NCBI RefSeq assembly: GCF_013315695.1
Contig: NZ_CP054353.1
DNA from: Escherichia coli
GTDB lineage: Bacteria; Pseudomonadota; Gammaproteobacteria; Enterobacterales; Enterobacteriaceae
Length of the DNA stretch: 64,000 bases
Strand: one strand, 5' to 3'
Of the stretch, positions 1,469 through 6,049 are shown in pieces. The translations under genes and the position numbers were made by a program. Position 1 is the first letter of the stretch. The number at the start of each line of letters is the position of its first letter. The notes below the pieces were generated by a model. That model saw nothing but the letters and a program-made list of their open reading frames with translations, was not told the origin of the DNA and did not search any database.

Positions 1469-2761
1469 TTACCTGTTTTCCCATAATCTCAGCATCGCTT
1501 TGTGCTCTTCCTTAAGCACAATCCGCGAGCGTCTGGCTCGAATATAACTAATCGCTTCATCAACGGTTTTACAATGTCCGTAACATAACAGCCATGCCGC
1601 CACCACCAGTGCACTGCGCGATAATCCCAACGCGCAATGGACCAGAACGCCGCCTTGCTCTTCGCGTAATGTTTCCAGCATCGCCACGGCCTGTCGTAGC
1701 TCCCCCTCTTCCGGAACCACCAGATCCAGCATCGGTACACAAAAATAGAGTTGATCTTTTGTGGCTCGTCCGCGAGGGAATTCAAAGGTGACGTCCAGAA
1801 CCGCATTCTGTGCCGGAATATGTTGTGGAAACGCCCCTAAATAAACACCAGCCGTAATTTTGCTCACCGGCTCAAGGCGAAGACAAAACCAACGCATAGA
1901 CAGCCACATCCCGATGCGCCAGGGCAATGTCAGCCAGTAAACGGCGGGCGGAAGTTTCCCCTGACTATCTTTCCCTGTTGTTATCGCGCCAAGCCCACCG
2001 TACCCACGGCCAATAATGAGTAGCGATAATACTGGCCAACATAACCAGACTGACCACCATAACTGAAGCATTATCATTAGCTCCATCAACACAATGCACG
2101 AGCACGCGCCTACGACATATGGCAGTGCTATTTTGATTCGACGTTGATCAGGTTTCTGATAATTCCAACGACGGTCGACGGGCACCATCCAGTCAATTAA
2201 CATACCTACCGCCAGCCCCGTGATGACATCAATAAAATGATGCTGCCAGGTCGTCAGCGTCGAAATGGCGATGAGTAAAAACCATCCGCCACAGACTTTA
2301 CGCAACCTCACAGCCAGATGCTGACGAAAGTGACGCCAAAGTAGCCAGCAGAGAATAATATGCAGCGAAGGAGACTGGTTATAAGGCAGATCAAACAGTT
2401 CAAGTTGCGAAAATAACCATCCTGTCACCCCACTCACTTCAGGACGGATAAAACTAAACTTCAGCGGATAGAGAAAAAAACCGCAGCAGGCCATTACCGT
2501 TGCCAGAATAAGCCGGTGGACCAGACGGCGCTGCTCAAATGTCGAGCTACAAACGAACAGCGAAAATCCATATAAAAGATCCAGACTCCAGTAAGGAACA
2601 ATAGTCCAGGGAAGAAAAGGGATCGCCGTTTCCCAACCGAATACCTGACTGGGGATATCATGGTTGTTAAGATGCTGAGTCGCGGTGAACTGATTAAGAA
2701 ATCCATATGTAAAGAAGAAAAACGGGGCCAGCAACAATAACCAGCCAGCTCCTTGTAGCAA
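1469..2761 (-). CDS. ynbD: Inner-membrane protein with C-terminal dual-specificity phosphatase domain
   Basis: ORF track 1469..2860; CX5R phosphatase motif [10 protein letters not shown] near C-terminus; multiple N-terminal TM helices. Start set at TTG 2759-2761 (430 aa) rather than the upstream ATG that overlaps ynbC by 86 nt. Confidence 0.8.
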
Positions 2762-2774
2762 TACGTTCCGGCGT

Positions 2775-4532
2775 TCAGTTATCACGACGCACCGCCATCG
2801 AAACCGTAAAAATGCCCCACTCATCAATCCGTTGTGTGCATTTATCAAATCCGGCATCATGCACGAGCGAATCCATCTCTCCTTGAGAACGCACGCGCAT
2901 TACCCACGGTTTACCATCTTTATGACTGGTTAACACCCCGGCAATCAGCTCCAGTTGTGGGTGCCACGGCTGCCCGGTGTAGAGGAGAATGCCACCCGGT
3001 TCGATGGCATTGGCAAGACCTGCGAGTGAGTTTTTTACCTGCTCATTTTCGGGGAAAAGCTCATACAGGCCAGAGACAATCGCCAGCGTAGGCCGCGGAG
3101 TTAACGCGCTGAGTTCCTCCGGGTTAAACGCATCGCCCTGTTCAAAACGCACCCGCCCAGACATTCCCCGTTGAGCAATCATCTCTTGCCCCTGTGCAAC
3201 ATTTAACTCGCTGTAATCACGTAACAAAATATCGCTTACGGCAGGCTCGTTTGCCAGCGCATCCAGTACATAGCGCCCATGCCCTGCGGCAATGTCAACC
3301 ACGCGGACGGCTAAACCTTTGGCGTGGAGATCGGCAACGGCTTGTTTAATCAGTATTTGTAAATGGGTTTTGCGCTGGCGAATACCGCGCCAGCCAACAC
3401 TGTTCAGGTAGATTTTGTCGATTAAGCGCCCGAATGCGTTACTACCTTGCGGTTGATTTTGATAGACATAATCCAGCGAACTGCCTGAATCAAAGCCGGT
3501 GCTCATTCCGAGATGCAGGCCCGCAGAGTGCGTCCCGAACAATTTCATCGCTTTACGCATAAAGCGATACGCCAAATCAACCGGCGATAATGGCACGGGT
3601 CCACCTGAAAGGAGCCGCCAGCGATCCGCTGATGGTCCAGTGCGGTCTTCATGCTGATAATCAAATTTTTGTGACTTGTTAGCATATAAACGACTAATAA
3701 AGCTTTGCATTTTTTCAAATGCCTGCGCCCTGTTCTCTTCACCCAACGTGTCGTGATAAAAGCCTGGCAGCAGATGCAGCTCTTTCAGAGGGCTACGTAA
3801 TCTCTGATAAAAATCAATCTGCGGTTGACGATGCACCACATAGTCATCGCCTGATATCAGAAGTTGCGTGGGGAGCGTAATCGCCGCCGCATCGCTAACA
3901 ATACGTTCAGACGTTTTATAAAGATCGAGCAAGATATTAACGGCAATCGCCCGTGTGATCAGCGGATCATTATTGAAACTCGCCACCCGTTGCCGATCGT
4001 GGGTCAAATAGCGTCCTTTCACATAGGAATTAATAAAAAACAGACCACGCAGACGATGCCATAACGCCAGCGCAGGACGTGCCAGCGGCACATACAATTT
4101 AACCTTAAAGGCCGGAGAAGCCAGCACCAGCCCGCGAATAGCAGGCGCATAATCATGAACCCATGTAGCAACCATCACTGCGCCGACGCTTTGCGCGATC
4201 ACAACTACCTCCTCCAGTCCGACCTGGCTGTCGCTGGCAGCAAAACGGACAAATTCATCGACATCCTGCACTGAACGCGCAAGAGATGGGCTATAACCAC
4301 GCGGCCCCGAAGTTTGTCCATGCCCTCGGGCATCCCATGCATAAAAAGCAGTATCTGGCATCGCCAGTTCATCAACGATATGTTGTAGACGACCAGAATG
4401 TTCATGACCGCGATGAAATAAGACGATGACCTTTTTCGCCCCTGGCTGTAAAGTGGGCCAGTGCCGATAAAACAACGCTGTATTATCACTGGTGGTAAAA
4501 AAATGTTCCCCAGGGATGCGTGAATTTTCCAT
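2775..4532 (-). CDS. ynbC: Bifunctional alpha/beta-hydrolase / SAM-methyltransferase-like protein
   Basis: 585-aa ORF; length and sequence consistent with K-12 YnbC; sits in the ynbA-D operon order. Confidence 0.85.
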
Positions 4533-4547
4533 TTTCTCTATTTTCCT

Positions 4548-5444
4548 TCAGTAACAGCAGTAGCGAATAAAATAAAAAAATACCGGAGCGGTGAAAATTA
4601 ATGAGTCAATCCTGTCAAGGAGTCCGCCATGTCCTGGTAATAGTTTTCCACTATCTTTAACACCAATATCTCGTTTGATGGCTGACATCACTACATCGCC
4701 GCAAAAACCACTTACCCCAATCAGTAACCCCGCCAATAATGCCTGCCAGGCGTTTAAGGGTGTCAATAACGGTCCAATGATCATCGACGCTATCATGGTG
4801 GTGATTACGCCGCCCATCAGACCTTCCAGTGTTTTTCCCGGGCTGACTTTGGGGACCACTTTTCTTCTGCCGCAGGATTTTCCCCATAAATACTGTGCAA
4901 TATCGTTTGACTCGGTTAATGCCAAAAGAAATAACACCAGTAACGCCCCGCCCTGGATATTTGTGGTTGGCAACATTAATAACCAGGCGGCATGACTCAA
5001 GGCGAAAACGGTCATTATCCAGCCACAAAAAATGGCACTCACGGTATGCAGAAAACCAGAGGGGTCACCCACTAAAACTCGCCAGGTGGCTAATATCAGA
5101 AACCCAGCCAAAGGTATAAATAACAGAAACAGCTCAAAGCAATTAAAACCGATAAGCAAATAGTTAAGAGGAATACCCCAATATAACCAACGCGGAAAAT
5201 GTACGGATATAAGCGTACAATATTCTTTCAATGCCAGAAAACTTATCAGCGCAAAAAACGTCAACGTCATCCAGCGTGGACCTGAAATCACCATTGAAAA
5301 ACAAATGACGATGCCCCACCAGGTACGAATACGTAATGTAACCTCACCCCCTTTTCCCTCCGGTAACCGCCATATCAGAAAACGGTTTATCAGCGTTGCT
5401 AAAATTAACAACGCGAAAAGTGTTGCCAGAGATTTTTCCAGCAT
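4548..5444 (-). CDS. ynbB: CDP-diglyceride synthetase (CdsA)-like membrane protein
   Basis: 298-aa polytopic membrane ORF; ATG at 5442-5444 overlaps the ynbA stop by 1 nt (operon coupling). Confidence 0.85.
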   Translation of the reverse strand: MLEKSLATLFALLILATLINRFLIWRLPEGKGGEVTLRIRTWWGIVICFSMVISGPRWMTLTFFALISFLALKEYCTLISVHFPRWLYWGIPLNYLLIGFNCFELFLLFIPLAGFLILATWRVLVGDPSGFLHTVSAIFCGWIMTVFALSHAAWLLMLPTTNIQGGALLVLFLLALTESNDIAQYLWGKSCGRRKVVPKVSPGKTLEGLMGGVITTMIASMIIGPLLTPLNAWQALLAGLLIGVSGFCGDVVMSAIKRDIGVKDSGKLLPGHGGLLDRIDSLIFTAPVFFYFIRYCCY

Positions 5445-6049
5445 TATCTTTCAGCACTCATCAGGAGCACACTTCGACAACGATTAATCGCAGTCCAGAG
5501 AAGCAAAATTGAAGCAATGCTCCATAAAAGATTATTCCATTGCATCCACTGTGGATAAATGGCAACAGCCAGCCCCCACAACCCAAATATTAACGCACGA
5601 TCGCTTTTGCCGAATGGACCGGCATAACTGCGAATACCGTTAATCGTCTGCGCGAGTAAACCGCAAAACTCAGTTAATATGGTGCAAAATAACATGAGTA
5701 TTACGAGTGATGCGTTACTTTCCGGTAAAAATAAAAACGGTAAATAAAGCGCAATATCGGAAATAACATCGCCAGTTTCATTCAAAATCGCCCCAAGACG
5801 TGTTTGCTGATTGCACTCACGCGCCATCATGCCATCCAGCGCATTGAGCGCCATACGGATAAAAAGCACGATAGGCAATAGCAAAAAGAGGATGGGTTGT
5901 GCCACCAACATCAACAGCAATCCGGTAAGAAGAGAAAGCGCCAGTGCAGCAAGAGTGATGTGATTCGCTGTAACATGGTGCTTATTAAGCCAAAACATCG
6001 TCGGCCTTAACAGCGACTGAAAGAGCGGTTTTATCTGGTAGAGCGTCAT
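5444..6049 (-). CDS. ynbA: CDP-alcohol phosphatidyltransferase-family membrane protein
   Basis: ORF track 5444..6055; ATG at 6047-6049 gives 201 aa (MTLYQIKPL...); CDP-alcohol phosphatidyltransferase-like motif region DGMMARE. Confidence 0.8.
   Translation of the reverse strand: MTLYQIKPLFQSLLRPTMFWLNKHHVTANHITLAALALSLLTGLLLMLVAQPILFLLLPIVLFIRMALNALDGMMARECNQQTRLGAILNETGDVISDIALYLPFLFLPESNASLVILMLFCTILTEFCGLLAQTINGIRSYAGPFGKSDRALIFGLWGLAVAIYPQWMQWNNLLWSIASILLLWTAINRCRSVLLMSAER

Follow-up and report, generated by a model that had tools for sequence, protein, structure and literature searches.

ynbABCD of Escherichia coli appears to be a reduced form of a widespread six-gene module that may build a specialized phospholipid

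What does the ynbABCD operon of Escherichia coli make? The question is raised by a stretch of 64,000 nucleotides (nt) from E. coli (contig NZ_CP054353.1, assembly GCF_013315695.1; here called the window), in which four consecutive minus-strand open reading frames (ORFs) between positions 1469 and 6049 correspond, in agreement with the RefSeq annotation, to ynbA, ynbB, ynbC, and ynbD. An earlier note on this DNA had singled them out as an intact operon for a lipid-modification pathway whose product was still unknown, and our literature search indeed found no paper naming the product of the operon; nor did it find anything on the function of YnbA or YnbC, on the Methyltransf_20 (PF12147) family, or on the gene module described below. 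The reading that we favor, and to which we give about an even chance, is that ynbABCD represents a dedicated, normally silent branch from CDP-diacylglycerol (CDP-DAG) that would build and then trim a specialized glycerophospholipid head group, E. coli retaining a four-gene remnant of it. What is new here is the six-gene module, a conserved noncanonical motif in YnbA, the two-sided layout predicted for YnbD, and a likely mis-annotated ynbD start; the operon itself was already known.

A scan of species-representative genomes returned at least 509 YnbC relatives, and the 80 loci that were kept, searched with the E. coli proteins as seeds, span Enterobacterales, many Pseudomonas, Cupriavidus, Variovorax, Zoogloea, Accumulibacter, Bradyrhizobium, and a metagenome-assembled genome (MAG) of Acidobacteria. 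Every one of the 80 loci has ynb genes, or homologues of them, in a cluster: YnbA is encoded in 79, YnbD in 77 (in 72 of them with both of its domains), and YnbB in 64. Two further genes recur in these clusters, one for a PlsC-type acyltransferase (PF01553; 63 loci) and one, directly after ynbD, for a small two-helix membrane protein of ~130 to 155 amino acids (aa) that belongs to no Pfam family (69 loci). All six genes are present together in 60 loci, and no conserved neighbor beyond these six was found across the 80. The gene order is ynbA-ynbC-ynbD-small protein-acyltransferase-ynbB in 46 loci, mostly from Pseudomonas and betaproteobacteria, and ynbA-ynbB-acyltransferase-ynbC-ynbD-small protein in 12, including those of Citrobacter, Hafnia, Superficieibacter, and Budvicia; Proteus, Providencia, Morganella, and Xenorhabdus carry a reduced form with only ynbA, ynbC, ynbD, and the small-protein gene.

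The A-B-C-D arrangement of E. coli was seen in none of the 80 species loci. At the site that the operon occupies in E. coli, between ydbL and azoR, Salmonella bongori has ynbA-ynbB-acyltransferase-ynbC-ynbD-small ORF (L092, 3853-9456). Alignment of the DNA of the two species yields two collinear blocks, ynbA-ynbB and ynbC-ynbD, with the acyltransferase gene missing from E. coli, and no homologue of either the acyltransferase or the small protein was found in the 64-kb window, which leaves E. coli with four of the six module genes. Because S. bongori has six genes at the same site, 60 of the 80 loci likewise have six, and A-B-C-D occurs nowhere else among them, the comparison shows the E. coli operon to be a six-gene module reduced to four genes, two having been lost. 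The description of the operon as intact therefore holds relative to K-12 only, and K-12 is an incomplete model of the system. A metagenomic ORF in which YnbA is fused to YnbC (P0123, 807 aa; L008, 1210-3633), located beside genes for YnbD, the acyltransferase, and YnbB, lends support, together with the conserved synteny, to a single pathway. The proposal of one lipid-modification pathway is thus strengthened by the clustering in every locus, by this fusion, and by the conserved catalytic residues described below, and has been partly overtaken by the literature on YnbB and YnbD.

Other forms of the gene set were encountered as well. One distant cluster has the order DUF4440-YnbA-YnbB-YnbC with an extra methyltransferase. 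Of 5426 complete E. coli genomes, 3 have a second copy on a plasmid (NZ_CP166875.1, NZ_CP045714.1, and NZ_CP027341.1), a Citrobacter-like ynbA-ynbB-acyltransferase-ynbC group with no ynbD (L093, 723-4640), whose YnbC shares 76% amino acid identity with the chromosomal protein. YnbC homologues were also found on 31 PLSDB plasmids, mostly megaplasmids of Shinella, Sinorhizobium, and Rhizobium. The second locus of Citrobacter sp. Cu233 (L023, 8156-11942, 66% identity) is fragmented, with a short YnbA, an acyltransferase, and a split YnbD, and provides an example of module decay.

Within E. coli itself the four genes are well preserved. The first 9 kb of the window are 100% identical to two RefSeq E. 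coli chromosomes, both of which annotate exactly ynbABCD. Compared with K-12 (b1408 to b1411), all four have equal lengths and the same start and stop codons, contain no internal stops, and are 95.5 to 97.3% identical in nucleotide sequence. The encoded proteins differ from those of K-12 by 5 (YnbA), 10 (YnbB), 17 (YnbC), and 22 (YnbD) amino acid changes, with ratios of nonsynonymous to synonymous substitution (dN/dS, Nei-Gojobori) of 0.06, 0.11, 0.17, and 0.24, respectively, against 0.05 for azoR. Given these lengths, codons, absence of stops, and dN/dS values, the ynb genes are real, undamaged relative to K-12, and under purifying selection. At least 80% of the operon is covered in 4274 of the 5426 complete E. 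coli genomes (79%), and at least part of it in 4765. It is thus a soft-core E. coli locus, annotated in RefSeq and already catalogued, rather than one peculiar to this strain or window. In one E. coli record (P0001, 889 aa), YnbB and YnbC form a single fused ORF, presumably through loss of the ynbB stop codon.

Several features would fit a single transcription unit: the genes share one strand and are spaced by -1, +15, and +13 (or -11) nt, a promoter is known from the literature, and a strong hairpin follows ynbD. The start of transcription has been mapped upstream of ynbA, and the promoter is activated by BglJ-RcsB, the site for which has been mutagenized (PMC3950696); promoter mapping, which the earlier note had put forward as a check, had therefore already been done. 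Unless BglJ-RcsB is active, the operon promoter is silent (PMC3950696). The translationally coupled overlaps that had been described are borne out at one of the three junctions and probably at a second. At the first, TAATG, the ATG of ynbB and the TAA of ynbA share one base; ynbB and ynbC are separated by a 15-nt spacer, containing AGGA, and do not overlap. The third depends on where ynbD begins. Under the current annotation a 13-nt spacer separates ynbC from ynbD, whose TTG start at 2761 (annotated in K-12 too) aligns with a codon that is no start in most orthologues. A conserved start lies 18 to 39 nt upstream of the annotated one, often overlapping the ynbC stop; its E. coli equivalent, common to Citrobacter, is GTG 2785, which would add 8 residues and create an 11-nt overlap with ynbC, and the ynbD ORF is open upstream as far as 2860. 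On these alignments GTG 2785 is probably the true ynbD start and the annotated one probably a mis-annotation, so that a second overlap, between ynbC and ynbD, is likely.

The domain assignments for YnbA, YnbB, YnbC, and the CX5R phosphatase of YnbD that the earlier note had offered agree with the Pfam results. YnbA matches CDP-OH_P_transf (PF01066) at 37.5 bits against a cut-off of 22 (E = 4e-9, profile positions 3 to 148 of 152). Its best NCBIfam matches are to the archaetidylinositol-phosphate and phosphatidylinositol-phosphate (PIP) synthases, both under the respective equivalog cut-offs (NF040950, 75.5 versus 180 bits; NF045883, 49.6 versus 170), and the match to the pgsA equivalog TIGR00560 is weak (29.2 bits versus 109.1), so that all equivalog cut-offs are missed. 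The best match in the Protein Data Bank (PDB) is the PIP synthase of Mycobacterium tuberculosis (6h53; profile E = 1.8e-12, full length). The usual four-Asp signature of the family, D1-x2-D2-G-x2-A-R-x8-G-x3-D3-x3-D4, is altered: asparagines occupy the first (N69) and third (N90) positions, D72 and D94 being kept at the second and fourth. N69, D72, G73, A76, G86, N90, D94, and D98 are invariant in all 81 orthologues, and the replacement of Asp by Asn is a conserved variant and not a sign of decay. A loop, RRYDGPxGKSDR, is conserved at the position of the acceptor-side loop of PIP synthase.

YnbA therefore resembles PIP synthase (PgsA1/PIPS, 6h53) and archaetidylinositol-phosphate synthase in its full-length alignment, in DG-x2-AR-x8-G, and in the last Asp, and differs from both in its scores far under the equivalog cut-offs and in the two asparagines. 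The likeness extends to the gene neighborhood, since the actinobacterial route of PIP synthase and PIP phosphatase likewise draws its CDP-DAG donor from a CdsA-type enzyme and the ynb cluster, too, includes a phosphatase gene; in the ynb cluster, however, the phosphatase is a CX5R dual-specificity phosphatase (DSP) domain fused to a PAP2 domain, and a hydrolase-methyltransferase (YnbC) is added. A pathway to an inositol lipid was considered and is disfavored, as no inositol-1-phosphate synthase gene was clustered with the module in any of the 80 loci.

YnbB matches CTP_transf_1 (PF01148) over the full-length profile (237.3 bits versus a cut-off of 24, E = 3.6e-70). In its match to the CdsA equivalog NF008635 (109.9 bits versus 385), only residues 161 to 291, in the C-terminal half, take part, in agreement with the report that the homology between CdsA and YnbB is limited to their C-terminal halves (PMC7018664).

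YnbC combines two soluble enzymes. Its N-terminal part matches Hydrolase_4 (PF12146; 231 bits versus 27, E = 1.6e-68) and, in the PDB, the monoglyceride lipases of M. tuberculosis and humans (1e-15 to 1e-11); S115, D230, and H260 are conserved in 87 to 88 of 90 orthologues. The Ser-Asp-His triad is that of monoacylglycerol lipases and lysophospholipases (M. tuberculosis Rv0183, human MGLL), from which YnbC departs in its nucleophile elbow, AQSVG instead of GxSxG, and in being fused to a Methyltransf_20 domain. The latter (PF12147, E = 3.5e-152) agrees with the family profile, carries the glycine-rich S-adenosylmethionine (SAM) motif I, also conserved among the orthologues, and has a Rossmann-like fold. 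The fusion family counts 405 cluster representatives at E < 1e-30. A distant YnbC-type fusion (33% identity; L006/L007, 4031-9779) lies beside a ketoacyl synthase, a MaoC dehydratase, and a short-chain dehydrogenase, with no Ynb partners; to judge from this fatty-acid-synthase-like context, the hydrolase-methyltransferase fusion is also used outside the Ynb module.

YnbD had been taken for a membrane-anchored phosphatase. The phosphatase part is clear, with DSPc at 93.7 bits versus a cut-off of 33.5 (E = 1.1e-26) and a P-loop, HCALGLSRS, of the CX5R type; C376, G379, R382, and S383 are invariant in all 75 orthologues compared, and D346 is likewise invariant. The ~290 N-terminal residues, on the other hand, appear to be more than an anchor, namely a PAP2-superfamily domain with conserved catalytic His and Asp residues. 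The E. coli protein itself scores 21.1 to 21.7 bits with the PAP2_3 profile, under the cut-off of 27; of 29 orthologues, 25 match PAP2_3 and 23 match PAP2 at E < 0.01 (best E, 3.6e-7). The C3 region aligns to that of human PLPP1, and both C2, P131-S-L-H134, and the H174, H175, and D178 of C3 are conserved or invariant among 74 to 90 orthologues; C1 is shortened, (K/R)-x4-RP instead of K-x6-RP, and Thr or Val stands in place of the C3 Arg. YnbD had been recognized earlier as the fourth PAP2 protein of E. coli.

In the AlphaFold2 model of YnbD (pLDDT 92.7, pTM 0.89), eight long helices are followed by the DSP domain, which Foldseek matches to DUSP5, DUSP14, and PTPMT1 (target TM-scores 0.7 to 0.8). 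Topology was read from the helices of this model, the hydropathy scan being too noisy. With the DSP domain and the Arg/Lys-rich loops taken as cytoplasmic, the three PAP2 motifs are predicted to fall at periplasmic helix ends, as is usual for PAP2 proteins, and YnbD would have a catalytic site on either side of the membrane. YnbD thus shares with PAP2 enzymes (PgpB, YbjG, LpxT, LPP1, and the Aur1-type inositol phosphorylceramide synthase in PAP2_3) its multi-helix domain, C2 PSxH, C3 H-x3-D, and a predicted periplasmic active site, and is set apart by the shortened C1, the missing C3 Arg, the cytoplasmic DSP fusion, and its behavior in vivo: overexpressed YnbD complements neither conditional pgpA pgpB pgpC mutants, lacking phosphatidylglycerol phosphate (PGP) phosphatase, nor conditional bacA ybjG pgpB mutants, lacking undecaprenyl-pyrophosphate (C55-PP) phosphatase (PMC7413402).

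A pathway can be sketched from these parts, each of its individual steps being less likely than the general scheme. The catalytic residues of all five domains, invariant or nearly so in 74 to 90 orthologues, support it. In the first step YnbB would condense phosphatidic acid and CTP to CDP-DAG, a reaction shown in the literature; its low rate would suit an enzyme that passes its product on to a partner better than a bulk supplier. YnbA, translationally coupled to YnbB, might then place the phosphatidyl group on an alcohol that is anionic and probably phosphorylated, an acceptor suggested by the inositol-phosphate synthase relatives of YnbA, the RRYDGPxGKSDR loop, and the N...N metal motif. The cytoplasmic CX5R domain of YnbD may next remove the terminal phosphate, by analogy with PTPMT1 acting on PGP, and soluble YnbC, to judge from its domains, could methylate the head group and/or remove an acyl chain. 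Finally, the PAP2 domain of YnbD, given its predicted topology and its His and Asp residues, would hydrolyze or transfer a phosphate or phospho-head group at the outer face of the inner membrane. In the full module the PlsC-like acyltransferase would supply the phosphatidic acid and the small protein would complete the set; E. coli presumably uses its housekeeping PlsC.

A number of observations weigh against this scheme. No lipid product has ever been assigned to ynbABCD, and under standard conditions no clear phenotype results from knocking out ynbB, ynbC, or ynbD (PMC6362211, PMC2435150, PMC7413402); the polyphosphate and stress phenotype of a ynbC transposon insertion was unspecific and confined to a single strain background (PMC2435150). 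With Asn at the first and third Asp positions, YnbA might not catalyze standard phosphatidyl transfer. Glycerol-3-phosphate is disfavored as the acceptor because YnbD failed to replace the PGP phosphatases (PMC7413402). Structure searches say little about substrates: the full YnbD model retrieves from the PDB only matches to its DSP domain, among which protein DUSPs and PTPMT1 score about equally and allow no conclusion as to the substrate, and many small-molecule methyltransferases are equally similar to that of YnbC, with no discrimination among their substrates. The topology of YnbD is itself a prediction. Lastly, part or all of the operon is missing from 12 to 21% of complete E. coli genomes, and the E. 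coli version, short of two module genes, may be only partly functional.

The most probable of the alternatives, unlikely as we consider it, is that YnbB alone matters, serving in the cold as another CdsA and making CDP-DAG and N-acetylglucosamine-pyrophosphoryl-diacylglycerol (GlcNAc-PP-DAG) as a back-up for the synthesis of the glycolipid MPIase, with YnbA, YnbC, and YnbD accessory or irrelevant. YnbB produces CDP-DAG in vitro at a low rate and does not support bulk phospholipid synthesis (PMC6362211, PMC7018664). Its overproduction raises MPIase and, upon CdsA depletion, restores MPIase and not phospholipids (PMC6362211, PMC7018664); ynbB is cold-induced together with cdsA, both enzymes having been proposed to form GlcNAc-PP-DAG (PMC6362211, PMC7018664, PMC11413397), and its deletion worsens secretion defects when Tam41p competes for phosphatidic acid (PMC6362211, PMC7018664, PMC11413397, bioRxiv 10.64898/2026.06.05.730299). 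For the MPIase step, YnbB is one of two enzymes reported and CDP-DAG is the donor; ynbA does not occur in the main text of PMC6362211, the one MPIase paper searched for it. However, deletion of ynbB alone leaves MPIase unchanged (PMC6362211), and MPIase is also restored by the eukaryotic CDS1 (PMC7018664), a result that points to a trait general to CdsA-type enzymes and not to a dedicated role. The coupling of ynbA to ynbB also speaks against YnbB acting by itself. The module, moreover, is widespread outside Enterobacterales: homologues of YnbB stand within it in Pseudomonas, Cupriavidus, Variovorax, Bradyrhizobium, and the Acidobacteria MAG, and since YnbB keeps this company so far from E. 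coli, its conserved partners would be YnbA, YnbC, YnbD, and the acyltransferase, and MPIase would not be its conserved role.

Somewhat less probable still is that the operon is a decaying remnant, a silenced and incomplete leftover that no longer makes the product of the module and persists by inertia or through some side activity. S. bongori has at this site two of the six module genes that E. coli lacks, the promoter needs BglJ-RcsB to be active (PMC3950696), and the operon is absent or incomplete in ~21% of complete E. coli genomes. The lack of a clear knock-out phenotype, the climb of dN/dS along the operon to 0.24 in ynbD, the position of the locus at a border of genomic heterogeneity (PMC4951805), and the IS1 deletion in this window (see below) point the same way. 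Against decay, none of the four ORFs is shortened or has lost a catalytic residue, dN/dS is well under 1 in all four genes, and published work on ynbB describes regulated expression as well as a conditional phenotype; the reduced A-C-D-small protein form of Proteus, Providencia, Morganella, and Xenorhabdus, furthermore, suggests that subsets of the module may function.

A more far-reaching proposal, which we regard as a long shot, is that YnbA differs from ordinary transferases of phosphatidyl groups to hydroxyls, its family-wide Asn-variant metal site being adapted to a phosphate-bearing nucleophile, e.g., a sugar-1-phosphate. The module would then make X-PP-diacylglycerol lipids of the MPIase/GlcNAc-PP-DAG class, and the PAP2 domain of YnbD would recycle diacylglycerol pyrophosphate after delivery of the head group, on the model of the undecaprenyl-pyrophosphate cycle. 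If this were true, the link between YnbB and MPIase would reveal part of a widespread and so far undescribed cycle of carrier lipids based on diacylglycerol.

The remaining two readings we judge very improbable. One is a redundant route to phosphatidylglycerol (PG), in which YnbB, YnbA, and YnbD would duplicate CdsA, PgsA, and PgpA/B/C (CDP-DAG + glycerol-3-phosphate -> PGP -> PG). The logic of this route and of mitochondrial PGS1-PTPMT1, i.e., a CDP-DAG synthase, a phosphatidyltransferase acting on a phosphorylated alcohol, and a lipid phosphatase, PTPMT1 being of DSP fold and among the structural matches of YnbD, is indeed similar, and YnbA does weakly match TIGR00560 (29 bits). That match, nevertheless, is far under the cut-off of 109 and under the scores with the inositol-phosphate synthase models, and the hydrolase-methyltransferase fusion would have no role. 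pgsA is essential in wild-type E. coli, despite the presence of ynbA. Neither the failure of YnbD to complement pgpABC (PMC7413402) nor the lack of bulk phospholipid synthesis by YnbB fits such a duplication. The other, that there is no single pathway and that the CX5R domain of YnbD is a regulatory protein (Tyr/Ser/Thr) phosphatase clustered with the rest through co-regulation only, takes its support from the best sequence and structure matches of that domain (DUSP26, DUSP13, DUSP14, DUSP5) and has against it the fusion of the domain to a PAP2 lipid-phosphatase-type domain in 72 of the 80 loci, its constant place beside YnbC and YnbA, and the nearly as good scores of lipid-acting DSP folds (PTPMT1), the highest identity being 25%.

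The features of the locus are listed in Table 1. The idea that the operon has survived among decayed neighbors applies to one side of it. Downstream, azoR and hrpA are both intact; upstream, a ydbD fragment abuts an IS1 element, beyond which the sequence continues with ydbL, ynbE, and ydbH. The IS1 copy lacks a 9-bp target-site duplication (left flank cgcttcgtt, right flank acttgaacc), and ydbA, pdxI, and the 5' part of ydbD, which lie between ydbL and the 3' end of ydbD in K-12, are gone. The K-12 stretch from ydbL to ydbD also includes feaR/feaB, tynA, and the paa genes. The missing duplication and the direct joining of the ydbD 3' fragment to the ydbL flank indicate an IS1-mediated deletion of the ydbA/pdxI/ydbD-5' region, and the locus is known to border a region of genomic heterogeneity (PMC4951805). 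In S. bongori, too, ydbL directly adjoins ynbA, as it does in this window after the deletion. Further IS1 inverted repeats are present at 16784-16806 and 25879-25901, and the 9-kb query matches the corresponding RefSeq genomes at 40 or more places, most of them IS1, so that the strain is IS1-rich.

The ydbD-ynbA intergenic region is identical to that of K-12 at 163 of 175 nt, all 12 differences falling in the distal 61 nt. A scan of 1300-6700 for consensus promoters and terminators returned fewer sites than it did on shuffled sequence, with none above chance. After ynbD, in the gap to the convergent azoR, the segment 1416-1470 folds at -24.9 kcal/mol (z = -5.0) around a perfect inverted repeat. 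This hairpin, likely a bidirectional terminator or stabilizer, has no T-run and so is not a canonical intrinsic terminator.

Table 1. Coordinates of the ynbABCD genes, their encoded domains, and flanking features in the window
Feature	Position	Strand	Description	Basis
ynbA	5444-6049	minus	201 aa, ATG start; CDP-alcohol phosphatidyltransferase family	ORF, Pfam
ynbB	4548-5444	minus	298 aa; CdsA paralogue (CDP-diacylglycerol synthase)	ORF, Pfam
ynbC	2775-4532	minus	585 aa; soluble alpha/beta hydrolase + class I SAM methyltransferase fusion	ORF, Pfam
ynbD	1469-2761 (annotated); 1469-2785 (probable)	minus	430 aa, TTG start (annotated); 438 aa, GTG start (probable)	ORF, RefSeq/K-12
YnbA active-site motif	5756-5845	minus	N69-x2-D72-G-x2-A-R-x8-G86-x3-N90-x3-D94-x3-D98	Alignment to PIP synthase
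YnbC hydrolase domain	3735-4439	minus	aa 32-266, monoacylglycerol-lipase-like; Ser115 (AQSVG), Asp230, His260	Pfam Hydrolase_4
YnbC methyltransferase domain	2787-3710	minus	aa 275-582; SAM motif D413-I-A-A-G417-H-G419	Methyltransf_20
YnbD N-terminal eight-helix membrane domain	1883-2761	minus	Putative PAP2 superfamily; C1-like (K/R)101-x4-R106-P107; C2 P131-S-L-H134; C3 S167...H174-H175-x2-D178	
YnbD C-terminal DSP domain	1472-1867	minus	C376-x5-R382 at nt 1616-1636; Asp346 invariant	
ydbD-ynbA intergenic region	6050-6219	minus	ynbA promoter	Mapping from PMC3950696
Inverted repeat	1430-1459		Perfect, 11 bp, 8-nt loop; between convergent ynbD and azoR	
ydbD 3' remnant (pseudogene)	6220-6597	minus	Last 378 nt (K-12 ydbD, 2307 nt)	RefSeq "incomplete, missing N-terminus"
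IS1	6598-7365	plus	768 bp; truncates ydbD, joins ydbD fragment to ydbL flank	

As the outcome of a genome scan, ynbABCD is an ordinary, already annotated locus. It is also among the few remaining E. coli gene sets that resemble a complete lipid pathway without a known product, and the one member studied, YnbB, has been linked to how the essential glycolipid MPIase is made, a matter of debate. The real unit is the six-gene module, which hundreds of proteobacterial and other genomes carry, rather than the incomplete version in K-12. The lipid of the module, if identified, would add to bacterial membrane biology a new head group or a new carrier-lipid cycle, and would show whether the effect of YnbB on MPIase is its real job or a side activity.

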